Positions 1 through 4,571 of a stretch of 4,571 nucleotides of DNA are shown piece by piece (the first letter of the stretch is position 1; each line of letters starts with the position of its first letter). Source of the DNA: a virus (Duplodnaviria > Heunggongvirae > Uroviricota > Caudoviricetes); IMG/VR virus record IMGVR_UViG_2531839233_000005, positions 1 to 4,571 of that record; one strand, 5' to 3'. Under the pieces are notes generated by a model. That model ran no database searches and had not been told where the DNA came from. It saw nothing but the letters and a program-made list of their open reading frames with translations. The translations under genes and the position numbers were made by a program.

Positions 1-44
1 GCTGATCCCTGGACGCCTTCCATTCTGATGTTTGACTCGCCCAC
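1..44 (-). CDS. Possible 5' end of first gene of a leftward early operon (partial, runs off window start); product unknown
   Basis: Minus-strand GTG at 44-42 preceded by GAGGA (reverse complement of 52-56) with 7-nt spacing; frame stays open to the window edge (VGESNIRMEGVQGS...). Only 14 codons are visible. Lies downstream of the predicted leftward promoter at 124-153. Confidence 0.25.
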   Translation of the reverse strand, partial: MGESNIRMEGVQGS

Positions 45-123
45 TGAGAAATCCTCTGCTTCCCCTTAACGCCGGGTAGCGGAACTGTTTGCTGAGAACA
101 CCGTGCGGTGTCTTGATGAGTAG

Positions 124-176
124 AATTTAGAATAGCCTAAGAGTTATGGTCAAGCTTTTTGTGTAGAAAAACCTAA
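124..176 (-). promoter_or_regulatory. PL-like leftward promoter with two operator-like palindromes (OL-like)
   Basis: Minus-strand -35 TTGACC (reverse complement of 148-153), 18-nt spacer, -10 TAAATT (reverse complement of 124-129). TTAG-aatagc-CTAA at 127-140 overlaps the -10 and spacer; gTAG-aaaaac-CTAA at 163-176 lies just upstream of the -35. Both share the motif found in the 661-727 operator cluster. Confidence 0.4.
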
Positions 177-251
177 GCTTCTTGATGTAAAAAACACAAG
201 TATTTGAAAGTTTGTGCTTTTTATTACAGAGAGTTGCGAAAAAAAGGGGGG

Positions 252-659
252 TTATTTATTTGCGCTTCTTTTGCGAGCTTTGAGTAGTTCTTCAAAAAGT
301 TTGTTGAAATTCTCAACTCGAGCACGCATCTCTGACAACAGAGCCTTTTGCTCTGACTCAGGCAGTGCGTCGAACAGTTGAAGCAACTCTTTTTGATCTT
401 CTGTCAGATTGACTGGCTGATTATCTGGGATCGGTTCGCCTGGTTGCTTATCTTCATCTCCAAAAAGAAGCCAAGTCGGCGAGCACTGAAGCGCCTGGCT
501 CAGTGCGAATAATCTCTTCCCCGCTGGCTGTGTTTCATCTCTTTCCCATTGAGAAATTGTTACGTGAGCGACTTTGACCAGCTTACCTAATGCGGCCTGA
601 GACAGTTTTAATTTTTTTCGCCTGTATAAGAGGCGAGCACCGAAGGTTTCGTTTTTCAT
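252..659 (-). CDS. dicA: Prophage repressor, DicA-like (XRE-family HTH, CI analogue), 135 aa
   Basis: Complete 135-aa ORF. N-terminal XRE-type HTH (LSQAALGKLVKVAHVTISQWERDETQP). Length and the C-terminal segment (LFALSQALQCSPTWLLFGDEDKQP ... ALPESEQ ... EMRARVENFNKLFEELLKARKR) match what I recall of E. coli Qin DicA. Divergent from a Cro-like gene. No SD upstream of the ATG. Confidence 0.85.
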   Translation of the reverse strand: MKNETFGARLLYRRKKLKLSQAALGKLVKVAHVTISQWERDETQPAGKRLFALSQALQCSPTWLLFGDEDKQPGEPIPDNQPVNLTEDQKELLQLFDALPESEQKALLSEMRARVENFNKLFEELLKARKRSANK

Positions 660-667
660 ATTAGGTA

Positions 668-696
668 ATTCTAATTTTTCTTGACTTAGGTTTCTC
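668..696 (-). promoter_or_regulatory. PRM-like promoter for the repressor gene, probably giving a leaderless or near-leaderless mRNA
   Basis: Minus-strand -10 TAGAAT (reverse complement of 668-673) ends 8 nt before the A of the repressor ATG (659). Weak -35 (GAGAAA, reverse complement of 691-696) at 17-nt spacing. The -10 is overlapped by the operator site at 661-674. No SD for the repressor. Confidence 0.35.
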
Positions 697-709
697 TACG
701 ATCTAGTTT
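681..709 (+). promoter_or_regulatory. PR-like rightward early promoter
   Basis: -35 TTGACT at 681-686, 17-nt spacer, -10 TAGTTT at 704-709 (TA...T conserved). Overlapped by operator sites at 686-699 and 710-727. Drives the Cro-like gene, whose RBS AAGGG (724-728) sits 7 nt before the ATG at 736. Confidence 0.4.
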
Positions 710-735
710 CCTTAGGAAAATCTAAGGGTTTCGAT

Positions 736-963
736 ATGTTGAAAATTGATGCTATAGCGTTTTTTGGCAGCAAAACAAAGCTTGCCAATGTCGCAGGAGT
801 TAGGCTGGCAAGCGTTGCTGCATGGGGGGAACTGGTTCCTGAAGGTCGCGCGATGCGCCTGCAAGAGGCATCCGGCGGGGAACTTCAGTACGACCCCAAA
901 GTTTATGACGAATATCGTAAGGCAAAGCGGGCGGGGCGGTTGAACAATGAAAATCACCACTGA
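736..963 (+). CDS. dicC: Cro-like regulator, DicC/YdaS family, 75 aa
   Basis: Complete 75-aa ORF divergent from the DicA-like repressor. Motifs typical of DicC/YdaS Cro analogues (FGSKTKLA..AGV..ASV..W, then GGELQYDPKVY). The symbol is assigned from synteny and recalled similarity, not from a search. Confidence 0.75.
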   Translation: MLKIDAIAFFGSKTKLANVAGVRLASVAAWGELVPEGRAMRLQEASGGELQYDPKVYDEYRKAKRAGRLNNENHH

Positions 964-1498
964 ACAGGTTTGTGAGGCTCTGGATACCTGGGTATGCCGA
1001 CCAGGAATGACACAGGAGCAGGCGACGATATTAATCACGGAAGCATTCTGGGCTCTGAAAGAACGCCCGAACATCGATGTTCAACGCGTCACGTTTAATG
1101 ATGGCGAGGTTGATCAACGGGCGCTGGGCGTTAACCGGGTGAAGATATTCGAACGCTGGAAAGCTATCGACACCAGAGATAAGCGTGACAAATTCACGGC
1201 GCTGATTCCGGCAATTATGGAGGCTATCCGGATCAGCGATTTCAGATTGTATTGTGAAATTACTGACGGAAAAAGCATTACGTACATGATCGCCGGGTTA
1301 AACAAAGAATATGGCGATGTGGTGGAGTCCGGGCTGCTTTTTGCGGATCCAGTTGTTGTGGAACGTGAGACTGACGAGCTTATAGAAAAAGCTATTGCTT
1401 TCAAGCACGCGTATCGTCAGCAATACCAATATTACTTTGCAGATAAACAAATGTCTGCCAGGGGGGCGTATGAGTATCGATGCACTACGATGGGCTAA
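947..1498 (+). CDS. YdaT-like protein (CII-analogous regulator / 'toxin YdaT' family), 183 aa
   Basis: Complete ORF starting at an ATG that overlaps the dicC-like stop by 17 nt. Sits immediately after the Cro-like gene, as ydaS-ydaT does in Rac and CP-933P. Contains the LIPAI motif and the MKI..E N-terminus I recall from YdaT. Longer than the roughly 140 aa I recall for K-12 YdaT. Confidence 0.55.
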   Translation: MKITTEQVCEALDTWVCRPGMTQEQATILITEAFWALKERPNIDVQRVTFNDGEVDQRALGVNRVKIFERWKAIDTRDKRDKFTALIPAIMEAIRISDFRLYCEITDGKSITYMIAGLNKEYGDVVESGLLFADPVVVERETDELIEKAIAFKHAYRQQYQYYFADKQMSARGAYEYRCTTMG

Positions 1499-2510
1499 AA
1501 AGGTGAAAACCGGCAGTTCATCCAGTAAGTCAGTATTGACCTGGCTTGCTGATATGTGCGGTGCCGATTTGTGTGCATACCCGTCTGTATCTGCACTGGC
1601 AGAAGTAACGGAACTGAACAAAAAGACTGTGCAGGACAGCTTACGACACCTGATGGAGATTGGGTTAATTGTTGATACCGGTGAGAGAAAAGGCAGAACA
1701 AAGCAAATTGTGGTGTACCGACTTATCGGTGTAGAAGAAAGTGTTGCCGAGCCTGAATACACCCAAAAACGGGAGTCTTTAAAGGTGGGTAAAATTGGTG
1801 CTGTTAATAAAAACAGTACCGAAAATGGTTATGTTTCAGCACAAAACAGACCCAAAAACAGAACTCTTAGCTGCATGGAAAATAACCAAAGACACCCAAA
1901 TTTTCCATCAAAGACACCCAAAAACGGATCACGGAACCCAAAGGAACCCAAAGATCTAAACCCCACACATAACGCACGCGAGAGTGCTCCGACCAGTGAG
2001 CAGGAAGTTTTGTCGTTACAGGCAGCCCCCCCTGTATTCCTGTATGGCCTGAGCGAACCCATCGGAAAATTCCCGATGAGCGATAGCTGGTATCCGTCAC
2101 GGGATTTTCGACGACGGGCTGCGTTGTGGGGGATGGCTTTGCCGGAGACAGAATTTACACCTGCTGAACTTGCCGCCTTCCGGGACTACTGGGCAGCGGA
2201 GGGGAAAGTGTTTACGCAGATTCAGTGGGAGCAGAAATTCGCCCGTCACGTAAATCACGTCAGGGCGCAGGTTAAACCAGTCAGCAAAGGGGTAAACCAT
2301 GCAGCAGCACCAGGTGGCACCGCATCACGGGCAGTTCAGGAAATTCGGGCAGCACGTGAGCAGTGGGAACGTGAAAACGGATTTATCAGCAACGGAAACG
2401 GCCTGGAAGCTGTGGGAACTCATGGGGGAGGTTTATTCGAACCGCTGGACCCAGAAGAACGGGGCCGCACCTTCGAAGCTCTGGATTGCCCAGATTGGTG
2501 CGATGACTGA
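1470..2510 (+). CDS. Phage replication initiator (O analogue): N-terminal HTH, low-complexity linker, DnaT-like C-terminal domain; 346 aa
   Basis: ATG at 1470 preceded by a G-rich SD (GGGGGG, 1461-1466); the TTG at 1395 from the ORF track is rejected. N-terminus MSIDALRWAKK...LIVDTGERKGR is typical of prophage initiator wHTH. C-terminal W..PS..F....W..F..W..KF..HV pattern resembles the DnaT ssDNA-binding domain. The linker is encoded by the iteron-like repeats. Confidence 0.8.
   Translation: MSIDALRWAKKVKTGSSSSKSVLTWLADMCGADLCAYPSVSALAEVTELNKKTVQDSLRHLMEIGLIVDTGERKGRTKQIVVYRLIGVEESVAEPEYTQKRESLKVGKIGAVNKNSTENGYVSAQNRPKNRTLSCMENNQRHPNFPSKTPKNGSRNPKEPKDLNPTHNARESAPTSEQEVLSLQAAPPVFLYGLSEPIGKFPMSDSWYPSRDFRRRAALWGMALPETEFTPAELAAFRDYWAAEGKVFTQIQWEQKFARHVNHVRAQVKPVSKGVNHAAAPGGTASRAVQEIRAAREQWERENGFISNGNGLEAVGTHGGGLFEPLDPEERGRTFEALDCPDWCDD
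1757..1953. repeat. Iteron-like direct repeats (candidate replication origin) inside the initiator gene
   Basis: CCCAAA cores at 1762-1767, 1851-1856, 1895-1900, 1917-1922, 1937-1942 and 1947-1952. ACACCCAAAAACGG is repeated exactly at 1759-1772 and 1914-1927. AAGACACCCAAA is repeated at 1889-1900 and 1911-1922. GGAACCCAAA is in tandem at 1933-1952. The four distal cores are spaced about 22, 20 and 10 bp. An AT-rich stretch lies at about 1786-1845. Confidence 0.5.
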
Positions 2511-2964
2511 ACAGCAAATCCGTCTGGTGTGCCGTCAGTGCATGGACCGCTGCCGGGCGGGTGAAACGTGGCCCCCGGACCTGGCTGAGTTTGTTGCGCT
2601 GATTTCGGAGAGTGGGGCAAATCCATTTGGTCTTACGGTGGATGCCGTGATGGAAGAGTACCGGCGCTGGCGCAATGAATCCTGGCGATACGACGGGAGT
2701 GATAAATACCCGTGGCCACAGCCTGTGCTGTACCACATCTGCCTCGAAATGCGTACCAGAGGGATTGAGCGCCAGATGACGCAAGGTGAGTTAAAACGAC
2801 TTGCGGAACGGCAACTGACGAAATGGGCAAAGCATGTTGGTAACGGGATGAGTGTTCCGCCAGTGCGACGACAACTGGAAGGGGCGAAACACCCGCAAGG
2901 GCCAACGCCAATTGAACGGCTGAAACAGGAATACGAACGCCGGAAGGCAGCTGGTTTTATTTGA
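2299..2964 (+). CDS. Replication protein P-like (DnaB helicase loader), 221 aa; start uncertain
   Basis: C-terminal half aligns by eye with lambda P (WPPDLAEFVALI vs LPSPGQFVAWC; YDGSDKYPWPQPVLYHICLEMRTRG..QGELKRLAERQL vs YPDAESYPWKSNAHYWLVTNLYQNMRANALTDAELRRKAADEL). ATG at 2299 has SD AAAGGGG (2286-2292) at 6-nt spacing. Alternative starts are 2422 and 2503; the 2503 ATG nearly abuts the initiator stop at 2508-2510. Confidence 0.7.
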   Translation: MQQHQVAPHHGQFRKFGQHVSSGNVKTDLSATETAWKLWELMGEVYSNRWTQKNGAAPSKLWIAQIGAMTEQQIRLVCRQCMDRCRAGETWPPDLAEFVALISESGANPFGLTVDAVMEEYRRWRNESWRYDGSDKYPWPQPVLYHICLEMRTRGIERQMTQGELKRLAERQLTKWAKHVGNGMSVPPVRRQLEGAKHPQGPTPIERLKQEYERRKAAGFI

Positions 2965-2997
2965 ATCTGAGAAACGATTTTGTCGGAGGAAATATTA

Positions 2998-3714
2998 ATG
3001 GAAACCGTATTTGACGCACTGAAAGCACTGAAAAAAGCCTCTTCACAGGTAGTGGCATCGCGCCTTGGAATTAGTCGTGAAGAGGCTGTCAACGAACTGT
3101 GGAAACTGAAACGCCGTGGAGAAGCGGATAACAAGGGGGCGATATGGTGGCTGACTCAGGCTGGTGAAAGTGAACCGGTGTCACCGGTACCGAAAGTGAC
3201 GGCGCAAATGCTGACAGAGGCGATTGAACAACATGGCCCACAAACGGCGGATGAACTGGCATTGATGTTCGGAATTACCTCCCGCCGGGCGAATTCATCG
3301 CTGGCAATGGCAATCAGCAAAGGGTGTCTGATTCGCGTGAATCAGGATGGTAAATTTCGTTACTGCATACCGGGCGTTGATTTACCGGCAGAGCCGAAAG
3401 CAGCATCCGTAGCTGAAACGGAGGGTAAAGCCCTTCCTCAGCCAGCTGGTGTTGCGTTACCAGTCCAGGAAACGGCTGCACAGGAAGAAATTAAAACAGA
3501 AGCGGTGGAGGACATTGTGAAGTTGCAGCAATCGTTCACTGAAGCGAAAGCAGATGACCTGATTCTACCATCGCTGCATGTGGCTAACCGCGAGCTGCGC
3601 CGGGCGAAAAGTAATGTTCAGAAGTGGGAGCGAGTCTGTGCTGCGCTACGGGAACTGAACAAACACAGGGATATTCTCCGGGATATTACCGCCACCAGAG
3701 AGCAGCAGCGGTGA
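2998..3714 (+). CDS. Hypothetical protein, 238 aa: two predicted winged-helix-like segments, acidic/Pro-Ala linker, charged helical C-terminus
   Basis: ATG at 2998 with SD GGAGGA (2985-2990) at 7-nt spacing; the TTG at 2980 is rejected. Residues about 1-55 and 70-125 look like wHTH units ([19 protein letters not shown]; [29 protein letters not shown]). Stop TGA 3712-3714 overlaps the next start. Confidence 0.75.
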
Positions 3715-4028
3715 GTGGCTGGAAGAAGTGGCGCTGGGCTGAAATCCTGATACTCCGGCAGTGTGCGGGAACGATGAGAGTCGAAAGCATCGGTTATCTG
3801 ATTGGCCGTAGTGAGTCAGCCGTCAGGACGAAAGCGCGGGAACTGGGTATCAGCATGATGTTACGGGGTGATTATCACCAGTCAGCCAAATGTTCACAGC
3901 GTGATATTGAGCTGGCGTGGCAACTGCATCAGCGTGGTGTACCCCGACGGGAAATTGCCGAAAAGTTTGGGATGAAGTTGGGCGCAGTGAATAACTACGT
4001 TTATTTCGACAGGAGGGTTCAGGAGTGA
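3711..4028 (+). CDS. Small dual-HTH DNA-binding protein with GcrA-like N-terminal segment, 105 aa
   Basis: GTG at 3711 overlaps the upstream stop (GTGA), implying translational coupling. [42 protein letters not shown] resembles the GcrA N-terminal HTH pattern (W..E..L......IA..LG.SRNAV.GK..RLGL). A second HTH-like segment is [19 protein letters not shown]. Alternative start ATG 3774. Confidence 0.6.
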
Positions 4029-4327
4029 GGGTGAGGGTTTATATCGCCGGTCCGATGACGGGATATGAAAATTTTAACCGCGAGGCATTTCACAAAACGG
4101 AAGAGGTGCTGAAACGGGAAGGGCATACCGTTTTAAACCCGGCAGTACTTCCGGACGGGCTGACTCAGCCACACTACATGGATATTTGCATGGCAATGCT
4201 CCGTTGCGTGGATGCGGTTTACATGCTGAAAGGCTGGCAGCAGTCGGCAGGTGCAGGGGCTGAGCTGGCACTGGAGGAGAAACCGGGCCATGCGGTGATT
4301 TTTCAGGAGGTGGGCAGTGAATATTGA
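4025..4327 (+). CDS. DUF4406-family protein (nucleoside 2-deoxyribosyltransferase-like fold), 100 aa
   Basis: GTG at 4025 overlaps the upstream stop (GTGA), with AGGAGG (4011-4016) 8 nt upstream. N-terminal VYIAGPMTG, then NPA and GW..S.GA..E matching what I recall of DUF4406/NDT-like small phage proteins. Confidence 0.7.
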   Translation: MRVRVYIAGPMTGYENFNREAFHKTEEVLKREGHTVLNPAVLPDGLTQPHYMDICMAMLRCVDAVYMLKGWQQSAGAGAELALEEKPGHAVIFQEVGSEY

Positions 4328-4571
4328 CCCGGCGATAACGATTGATATGGCCCTGAACGCCGGCCTGGCACTTCTTGGTTATTTCTACATTATGTTCTGC
4401 AGCGGACGATGGCTGTCACTGTTGTTCATGAAAAAATGGAATAAACGCCGTAAGCAGGAGCAACGCCAGAAGGCAATGGATGCATTTTTCGAAGCCTTCG
4501 GAATTGACGGCATGGAACCAGGGGATCCAGCTCGCGCAATCAGCAGAGGGGGCGTAGTAATCCTTGTATAC
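4317..4571 (+). CDS. Hypothetical membrane-anchored protein (partial, continues past window end)
   Basis: Absent from the ORF track because it has no stop in the window. GTG at 4317 with strong SD AGGAGG (4305-4310) at 6-nt spacing; overlaps the DUF4406 stop by 11 nt. 85 codons open to the window end. Predicted TM helix (ALNAGLALLGYFYIMFCSGRWLSLLFM) followed by a basic stretch (KKWNKRRKQEQRQK). Confidence 0.5.
   Translation, partial: MNIDPAITIDMALNAGLALLGYFYIMFCSGRWLSLLFMKKWNKRRKQEQRQKAMDAFFEAFGIDGMEPGDPARAISRGGVVILVY

Follow-up and report, generated by a model that had tools for sequence, protein, structure and literature searches.

We analyzed a 4,571-nt stretch of DNA (positions 1 to 4,571 of IMG/VR virus record IMGVR_UViG_2531839233_000005; hereafter the window, whose numbering is used throughout), which represents the immunity and early-replication region of an Escherichia coli lambdoid prophage of the PPompW type. 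We consider it likely that positions 1756-1953 constitute the iteron array of the prophage replication origin, located inside the linker-coding part of the prophage's own initiator gene. Underlying this proposal is the observation that, throughout a large initiator family, it is the DNA of the repeats and not the peptide that is conserved, given that synonymous sites are frozen and that copies occur in all three reading frames. An earlier note on the window, made from its letters alone, had proposed that the linker of an O-like initiator contains an iteron array resembling ori-lambda, and this proposal is supported by comparative codon and frame tests, by the modularity of the locus, and by the parallel with lambda.

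Linker repeats are conserved as DNA across the initiator family

Homologues were collected using N-terminal peptide patterns only, ignoring the linker, which yielded 80 copies from E. coli that are nearly identical and a diverse set of 60 genomic loci. Codon and frame tests were then performed on 49 non-redundant homologues ranging from Enterobacterales to Desulfovibrionaceae, with a null model in which synonymous codons were resampled from each locus's own usage while keeping the peptide fixed (1000 runs). The 11-mer CCC[AG]AAAACGG was found in 88 linker copies across the 49 genes, compared with 2.85 +/- 1.7 copies after resampling (maximum 11 in 1000). Where the repeat is read in frame as P[KE]NG, proline is encoded by CCC in 68/68 cases (background 14%), Lys/Glu by AAA/GAA in 68/68, and Asn by AAC in 66/68 (background 45%). 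Synonymous scrambling of the repeats under a retained linker peptide, which the earlier note had named as evidence that would count against an origin, is thus contradicted in these 49 homologues.

Reading frame provides a second line of evidence. Copies in other frames (22/90) are translated as QKR or PKT and not as PKNG, and at least three copies of some 10-mer were found in the linkers of 48/49 genes, 38 of which carry copies in more than one frame. Among 186 spacings between copies, 47 are 17-18 bp and 67 are 21-25 bp, and 92 are not multiples of 3, while control C-terminal regions and shuffled linkers mostly contained 1-3 copies. Four diverged phage homologues all carry CCC[AG]AAAACGG immediately downstream of the winged-helix domain, in 2-5 copies or, with near-matches included, more. 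We also observed clade variants, such as CCCAACAACGG-type repeats in Acinetobacter and CCCCCGAAC in a Desulfovibrionaceae genome, with the CCC[AG]A core and a spacing of 17/22 bp still in place. Because the linker is predicted to be disordered, it can tolerate coding imposed by the DNA, and the "PKNG-like" peptide repeats of this family become understandable as the shadow of DNA sites.

The repeat array in the window

In the window itself, ACCCAAA occurs six times, exclusively on the + strand (at 1761, 1850, 1894, 1916, 1936 and 1946), compared with an expectation of 0.83 +/- 0.91; six copies were reached in 0/200 dinucleotide shuffles. The copies read as TQK, RPKN, HPN, TPKN, NPK and EPK, and so use all three frames. 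The CCCAAA-core direct repeats, which the earlier note had counted as six or more, are therefore real, as are its exact 14-nt repeat (CAAAGACACCCAAA, at 1887 and 1909) and its 22, 20 and 10 bp spacings of the distal copies. Its placement of the repeats in an inter-domain linker also holds, since they lie between an N-terminal helix-turn-helix (HTH) domain and a DnaT domain, in a segment that AlphaFold2 predicts to be disordered. We additionally detected a longer 24-nt repeat family with three copies (1756, 1845 and 1911), and an unusual strand composition in the repeat region, with GC skew falling as low as -0.40 and AT skew reaching +0.58.

The repeat unit is longer than first described, at ~17 bp with core CCCAAAAACGG. 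Alignment with homologues from E. coli, Kluyvera, Scandinavium, Edwardsiella and Serratia defined six iteron positions, which in the window (1762-1927) are spaced 24, 32, 33, 44 and 22 bp apart:

Iteron position 1: 1762..1772, + strand; perfect core CCCAAAAACGG, full unit at ~1756-1775, read as T-Q-K-R
Iteron position 2: 1786..1796, + strand; decayed, TGGGTAAAATT, placed by alignment to Edwardsiella, Serratia and Scandinavium
Iteron position 3: 1818..1828, + strand; degenerate core ACCGAAAATGG with 3 mismatches
Iteron position 4: 1851..1861, + strand; CCCAAAAACAG, one G-to-A change from perfect, read as R-P-K-N-R
Iteron position 5: 1895..1905, + strand; variant core CCCAAATTTTC (a CCCAAATTT variant), read as H-P-N-F
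Iteron position 6: 1917..1927, + strand; perfect core CCCAAAAACGG, read as T-P-K-N-G

These positions differ in how strictly they are kept among E. coli copies. Position 1 is invariant in 79/79 copies, and position 6 is invariant in the 78 that retain it, the 79th copy diverging from position 5 onward. Position 2, which reads CCAAAAACGG in relatives, is decayed in all E. coli copies. At position 3, a core ending in ...AAAACGG is found in 23/79 copies and the common ATGG in 56/79, while position 4 has a perfect core in 63/79; the window's haplotype combines the common ATGG at position 3 with a minority allele at position 4 (CAG instead of CGG, 14/79). The CCCAA(A/T)TTT variant of position 5 recurs at the corresponding site in Edwardsiella phage EPP-1 and Acinetobacter phage LZ35. 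Overall, variable sites make up 8.8% of the iteron cores vs. 19.4% of the rest of the linker, and 1880-1953 is almost invariant. The earlier note had also asked whether repeat number varies among homologues, which we did not see in close relatives: the 80 E. coli copies exhibit point polymorphism only, with no copy-number variation, and nearly all intact alleles among them encode 346 aa.

A terminal element follows the last iteron, and an AT-rich segment lies within the array

Two further features accompany the six iteron positions:

Terminal element: 1931..1953, + strand; CGGAACCCAAAGGAACCCAAAGATC (GGAACCCAAA x2), detected by Tandem Repeats Finder (TRF) and by cross-genus DNA conservation
Least stable 40-bp segment within the initiator gene: 1778..1818; candidate for first melting, from a nearest-neighbour stability profile

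TRF reports GGAACCCAAA in 2.1 copies at 1933-1953, as a 10-bp tandem. The two short distal repeats at 1936 and 1946, counted in the array by the earlier note, are probably not full iterons, as they align with this separate conserved element (CGGAAYC), which is homologous to a DNA-conserved CGGAAYCTAYCA..GAACC..AAAGATCT sequence that follows the last iteron in relatives. The element is nearly invariant among E. coli alleles, and its reading frame differs between groups (ESTSNL in the Edwardsiella/Serratia group, RNLP in the Enterobacter/Kluyvera group). Since genera differ in the frame in which they read it, selection appears to act on its DNA as well, and the element may represent half-sites or an origin-flanking element. 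In relatives, the sequence after the array takes the form C[AG]GAAYCTAYCA...GAACC...AAAGATCT, and in phiV10 and Vibrio phage H20 the array is followed by 2-3 copies of AACCAGTCAT.

The AT-rich stretch of the earlier note does exist, at 1778-1850 (GC 0.36-0.38), although it lies within the array, at the decayed iteron positions, and not upstream of it, and it is not a conserved separate element. Its least stable portion, 1778-1818, has a nearest-neighbour stability of -48.0 kcal/mol, where the window as a whole averages -57.0 (sd 4.0). Stability is lower still in intergenic DNA and in some of the coding DNA upstream, and the low stability of 1778-1818 is not conserved in relatives. In several relatives, the array is immediately followed by an A-rich tract resembling that of lambda. 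Within the window, DNA downstream of the point at which the array ends has a GC content of 0.50-0.54.

Other functions for the same DNA were also considered. No Rfam family was found in the window, and a consensus scan found no internal promoter or terminator at the array, with overall counts at or below shuffle expectation. Programmed frameshifting at CCCAAAA was dismissed, given that the motif occurs in all three frames and that no alternative open reading frame (ORF) follows it.

The initiator combines a winged-helix domain with a DnaT-like domain

The initiator consists of an N-terminal winged helix, a disordered linker, a DnaT-like single-stranded DNA (ssDNA)-binding domain, and a disordered tail:

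Initiator gene: 1470..2510, + strand; 346 aa, "phage replication protein", from the ORF and annotation in LC567818 and RefSeq
HTH_36-type winged-helix domain, coding region (aa 1-89): 1470..1736, + strand; presumed iteron-binding domain
DnaT-like ssDNA-binding domain, coding region (aa 194-278): 2049..2303, + strand; from NCBIfam, PDB and Foldseek matches

An AlphaFold2 model based on 23 homologues predicts a folded winged helix at aa 1-88, a linker at aa 89-194 with predicted local distance difference test (pLDDT) scores <35, and a confident DnaT-like domain at aa 195-267. In this model, the N-terminal domain comprises four helices (H3-11, H17-30, H40-47 and H51-64) and a beta wing (67-85), with pLDDT mostly at 66-86 and a dip to 58 at aa 31-40. 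Pfam HTH_36 is sub-threshold in the window protein (22 bits vs. a cut-off of 25) and above threshold in homologues, and Foldseek searches with the N-domain returned weak matches to generic winged-HTH proteins, including DNA-bound RepA_N plasmid initiators. The N-terminal 165 aa match phrog_1032, annotated "replication initiation protein" (E 5e-55), with weaker matches to several "replication initiation O-like" PHROGs. No Rep_3 domain match was found in the initiator, only a sub-threshold match to RP-C (E 0.003-0.008).

The DnaT-like C-terminal domain that the earlier note had recognized is borne out by several matches: Pfam DnaT (PF17948) at aa 201-267 (E 9e-17), DnaT chains in the PDB (E 1e-29), and Foldseek alignment to the DnaT ssDNA-binding domain (4ou6/6aeq; template modeling score 0.9, 53-58% identity). 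The NCBIfam DnaT equivalog NF002770 scores 93.5 bits vs. a cut-off of 201, with only model positions 82-166 matched. Given this sub-threshold score and the restriction of the match to the C-terminal part of the model, the window protein is therefore an initiator with a DnaT-type ssDNA-binding domain and not an orthologue of DnaT. The three-helix ssDNA-binding domain at its C-terminus is the one found in the E. coli primosomal protein DnaT, but the window protein lacks the DnaT N-terminal domain, in place of which it has the winged-helix domain and the iteron linker.

The N-terminal domain and the repeats behave as an exchangeable module

The array ends at a sharp boundary within the gene:

Mosaic junction: 1950..1965; from megablast matches that begin at query positions 1950 and 1954, and from protein alignment

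The junction sequence is "...AAACCCCACACAT" (LNPTH). Downstream of it, the DnaT-like C-terminus and the adjoining gene for a lambda-P-like protein share 86-87% DNA identity with Rac-SA53 ydaU/ydaV and with phage pPE4, whose YdaU-type proteins have this C-terminus in common from "LNPTH" on; their N-terminal domains, like the DNA of their linkers, are unrelated to those of the window. Database proteins combine the DnaT-like C-terminus with N-termini of HTH_36, DUF1376, T5orf172 + DUF1376 or "replisome organizer" type. Conversely, the N-domain and iterons are fused to a DnaT-like C-terminus in the window and in phiV10, to a lambda-O-type Phg_2220_C C-terminus in EPP-1, and to different C-termini again in H20 and LZ35. 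The next gene also varies: it is P-like in EPP-1 and encodes a DnaB-like helicase in LZ35, whereas neither a P-like nor a DnaB-like helicase gene was found downstream in H20. As the N-domain and iterons occur with various C-termini, and the DnaT-like C-terminus occurs with unrelated N-termini after the array, the N-terminal domain and repeats behave as one exchangeable module ending at the junction.

Several side observations concern this boundary. One and the same DnaT-like C-terminus is found behind three N-terminal modules that are unrelated to one another, each of which carries a different short tandem repeat just 5' of the junction (GGAACCCAAA x2, GATACA x2 and CAGATAA x2). A GATC-containing AGATCT is present at the junction in the window and in Rac-SA53 (two of the three modules), and also in EPP-1 and H20. 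In the Rac-SA53 sequence, the junction lies at ~2980-3020. In pPE4 (PP818812.1, "Actinobacillus phage vB_Apl-pPE4"), the junction lies at ~2980-3010, and the phage carries a dicA / ydaT / DnaT-like / P-like module whose DNA is 87% identical to that of the Rac-type module of E. coli. Such a module is unexpected in a phage of the recorded host, Actinobacillus pleuropneumoniae, and it is worth checking whether it reflects host misassignment or recent transfer.

Comparison with ori-lambda and other known systems

Together with the O/iteron systems of Shiga toxin (Stx) phages (PMC7466680), ori-lambda is among the closest known systems. It too has direct repeats of ~17-19 bp, which follow each other at intervals of about two helical turns in the central, linker-encoding portion of the initiator gene; the annotated iterons (ATCCCTCAAAACGAGGGA and relatives) lie in mid-O and are read in three frames, as PQNEG, PKTRD, SLKLGD and PSKQGD. 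Both ori-lambda and the window family have a layout of C-run, A-tract and G-run with one CAAATT-type variant copy: one lambda iteron is a CAAATTGGGGG variant, and position 5 of the window resembles lambda iteron 3 (CCCTCAAATTGGGGG). In both, an N-terminal DNA-binding domain and iterons form the specificity module, a P-like gene comes next, and the genes belong to a pR-type operon.

The two systems also differ in several respects. Core geometry is CCC-N6-GGG in the window family and CCCTC-N5-GAGGG in lambda (6 vs. 9 nt from CCC to GGG), the initiator N-terminus is of HTH_36 type and not Pfam Phage_rep_O as in lambda O, and the C-terminal domain is DnaT-like where lambda O has Phg_2220_C. Unlike lambda, the window has no clear 40-bp A/T-rich region after the array, and its P-like protein is short (153 aa) relative to the lambda system. 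Direct homology to lambda O was rejected after BLASTP found nothing, hhalign gave a probability of 4%, and Phage_rep_O remained sub-threshold (E 0.067, 14 bits vs. a cut-off of 28.7); what is left is transitive, in that two O-like profiles, phrog_678 and phrog_345, are each matched by the initiator and by lambda O over the same region. The relationship of the initiator to the lambda O family is distant at best.

Also among the closest systems are phiV10 (gp43/gp44) and the epsilon15-like phages (Uetakevirus), which have the same HTH_36 + DnaT initiator architecture followed by a lambda-P-like gene. The phiV10 N-domain is ~42-48% identical to that of the window, and six CCC/ACC-[AG]AAAACGG repeats occupy the same place, 17-23 bp apart and all in one frame, with three copies of AACCAGTCAT after the array; the phiV10 record has no ori annotation. 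Among chromosomal genes, DopC of Cellvibrionales and Oceanospirillales has an HTH_36 N-terminus and a DnaT C-terminal motif, with the P-like DopE encoded immediately downstream (Brezellec et al. 2017, PMC5509034), and its authors derive DopC/DopE from lambdoid O/P-type genes and report no iteron-like sequences in dopC (PMC5509034). Whereas DopC/DopE are chromosomal and domesticated, the window is a prophage copy with iterons, and presumably represents their ancestral phage state. Finally, ydaU/ydaV of the Rac prophage (oriJ) resemble the window in having a DnaT-like domain, a P-like gene and a dicA/dicC/ydaT-like regulator context, but the N-terminus of Rac-type YdaU is DUF1376 instead of HTH_36, and CCCAAAAACGG repeats are absent.

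A model for initiation at the array

Based on the lambda paradigm, and because the C-terminal domain of DnaT is known to bind ssDNA (PDB 4ou6), we infer initiator binding, unwinding, helicase loading and origin activity at the array. In such a model, the early pR-type operon (cro-like, YdaT-like, initiator and P-like genes) would be transcribed through the site, and the winged-helix N-domain would bind the ~17-bp units, whose core CCCAAAAACGG may be viewed as a CCC/GGG mini-dyad around an A5 tract, with units spaced about two helical turns apart. Several bound initiators could then oligomerize, bend or wrap the A-tract DNA, and destabilize neighbouring DNA of low stability, after which the DnaT-like domain would bind the exposed single strand and/or dock the P-like protein, which in turn would deliver host DnaB. 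Residues D69, T70, G71, E72, G75 and T77 are conserved in the family, as are K52/T53 in the recognition helix, and this conservation of the N-domain may parallel that of the CCC[AG]A core.

A bolder extension concerns interactions between elements. CCC[AG]AAAACGG is almost unchanged in many initiator lineages whose N-domains are only 35-60% identical to that of the window, and hosts of the conserved 11-bp core range from Enterobacterales to Vibrio, Acinetobacter and Pseudoalteromonas. It is conceivable, though we regard it as doubtful, that unrelated phage and prophage initiators fire or titrate each other's origins, and that the DnaT-like domain provides a hand-off of ssDNA to P-DnaB in the style of the restart primosome. 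Should binding specificity be preserved to the same degree as the DNA word, elements sharing a host would be expected to show cross-talk in replication or to be incompatible.

Weighing the origin against other explanations

Several points weigh against an origin in the window. Its allele lacks the consensus at positions 2, 3 and 4, no conserved AT-rich unwinding element adjoins its array, and the A-rich tract that comes next in some relatives is truncated here by the mosaic junction. The homology of the N-domain to lambda O is weak by both profile comparisons given above, and a literature search found no binding or replication experiments on this initiator family. Moreover, in PPompW genomes the exonuclease and portal genes are both frameshifted and an insertion sequence (IS) element is present, and in view of these pseudogenes and the IS element the window copy may not be firing.

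Two alternatives retain some weight, each of them unlikely. One holds that the array consists of initiator-binding sites that are mainly regulatory, serving in autorepression, as a roadblock or in handcuffing copy control, with the start site elsewhere in the prophage. Plasmid iterons generally act both in initiation and in negative control, the sites lie inside the initiator-encoding operon, and the window array has no convincing conserved AT-rich unwinding element beside it, all of which would suit a regulatory role. On the other hand, such a role would leave the start site to be found elsewhere, and complete genomes reveal no second motif cluster: the 11-mer copies of PPompW_132418 (2), phiV10 (4) and EPP-1 (5) all lie in the initiator linker, with none outside it on either strand. 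The layout is also that of ori-lambda, whose intragenic iterons are the origin, and the A-rich tract directly after the array in several relatives likewise argues for initiation at the site.

The other, which we rate as similarly improbable, is that the array is a decaying relic of a functional origin, no longer productive in a defective prophage lineage. The condition of the window allele points in this direction, with a perfect core at only two of six positions, the minority position-4 haplotype alongside ATGG at position 3, and a position 2 that is destroyed in all E. coli copies, as do the PPompW gene disruptions listed above. Against a relic stand the intact initiator and P-like ORFs in the window and in most copies, and the near-invariance of positions 1, 5 and 6 and of the terminal element across ~79 copies, which suggests continuing constraint; lambda, moreover, is functional with four iterons. 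A milder form of the idea is compatible with an origin at the array: since only two of six positions keep a perfect core, the origin of the window allele may be weakened, perhaps decaying, and its minority haplotype together with the frameshifted genes and IS element of PPompW suggests that this may occur under relaxed selection.

Far less probable is that the repeats are a by-product of a selected Pro-Lys-Asn-Gly-type linear peptide motif in the disordered linker, used for instance in docking a host protein. Many family members do show xP[KE]NG-like repeats (including PNNG, PKSG and PKIG), and predicted disorder is typical of regions with short linear motifs, but the frozen synonymous sites (88 11-mers vs. 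2.9 expected), the translation of the same DNA word as TQKR, PQKR, HPKT or PKNG depending on frame, and the 17-bp spacing, which shifts the frame at each copy, all contradict it. As the sole cause, a peptide repeat is ruled out by the codon-resampling and frame tests. We give least credence of all to binding by another protein (a host factor, or a Cro-like or YdaT-like protein) or to a recombination "linker" for module exchange, as suggested by an array that ends exactly at the mosaic junction and by the recurrence of the GATC-containing AAAGATCT motif at junctions in several phages, because the motif tracks the winged-helix N-domain from Enterobacterales to Desulfovibrionaceae whatever the neighbours or C-terminus, and genes with other N-domains at the same junction lack it.

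Genomic context of the initiator gene

Over positions 1-3111, the window has 96.5% identity by megablast to PPompW prophages of enterohaemorrhagic E. coli (EHEC) strains, and parts of it are contained in 3622/5426 complete E. coli genomes. The genes surrounding the initiator are as follows:

dicA/cI-like repressor: 252-659, - strand
Cro-like gene: 736-963
YdaT-like gene: 947-1498
Lambda-P-like helicase-loader gene: 2503..2964, + strand; from Pfam Phage_lambda_P, phrog_109 and the Prokaryotic Genome Annotation Pipeline (PGAP) label "replication protein P"

Further 3', the P-like gene is followed by a DUF1627/YdaW-like gene, an HTH protein gene and a DUF4406 gene. The P-like identity of the neighbouring gene is confirmed by matches to Pfam Phage_lambda_P (E 1e-15) and to phrog_109, "P-like helicase loader" (E 4.5e-54), and its ATG overlaps the initiator stop codon (ATGACTGA). 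We also observed that the P-like frame is open from an ATG at 2299 (221 aa), while PGAP and the Rac-SA53 annotation begin at the ATG at 2503 (153 aa). BLASTP aligns phiV10 P also to residues 18-69 of the long 221-aa ORF, so that N-terminal P-like similarity extends into the ~200-nt overlap (2299-2510) with the initiator's disordered tail, and a single profile, phrog_15931 (482 positions), covers both the DnaT-like and the P-like parts. Possible readings are that the two genes overlap out of frame over a long stretch, that P has been truncated at its N-terminus, or that annotations are occasionally fused.

Elsewhere in the window, a 23-bp tandem repeat (AAGCTTCTTGTGTAGAAAAACCT x1.9) lies at 152-195, downstream of the dicA-like repressor gene, and a palindrome, CCTTAG-N6-CTAAGG (710-727), lies in the intergenic region between the repressor and the cro-like gene, with more CTAAG/CTTAGG words close by; both are probably operators of the immunity switch. 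The final ~270 bp (4304-4571) are 92% identical, on the opposite strand, to Stx1/Stx2 phages (VT2-Sakai and others), indicating a further mosaic or inverted segment boundary near 4304-4320.

Implications for phage and prophage replication

Origins that lie within O-like initiator genes are textbook knowledge. Our findings extend the lambda paradigm to another initiator family and establish no new principle, and the HTH_36 + DnaT_C / P-like architecture is already published for DopC/DopE and annotated in the phiV10 record. The iterons themselves had no earlier description in our literature search, which left out subscription-only papers.

What the array would provide is a concrete candidate origin of ~200 bp for a replication module that is very common in E. 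coli, including the effector-carrying PPompW prophages of EHEC. The window likewise supplies an iteron-bearing, phage-type counterpart to the domesticated DopC/DopE system. More broadly, because the HTH_36-type initiator family carries a recognizable DNA word in its linker, the origins of hundreds of phages and prophages could be annotated from sequence alone.

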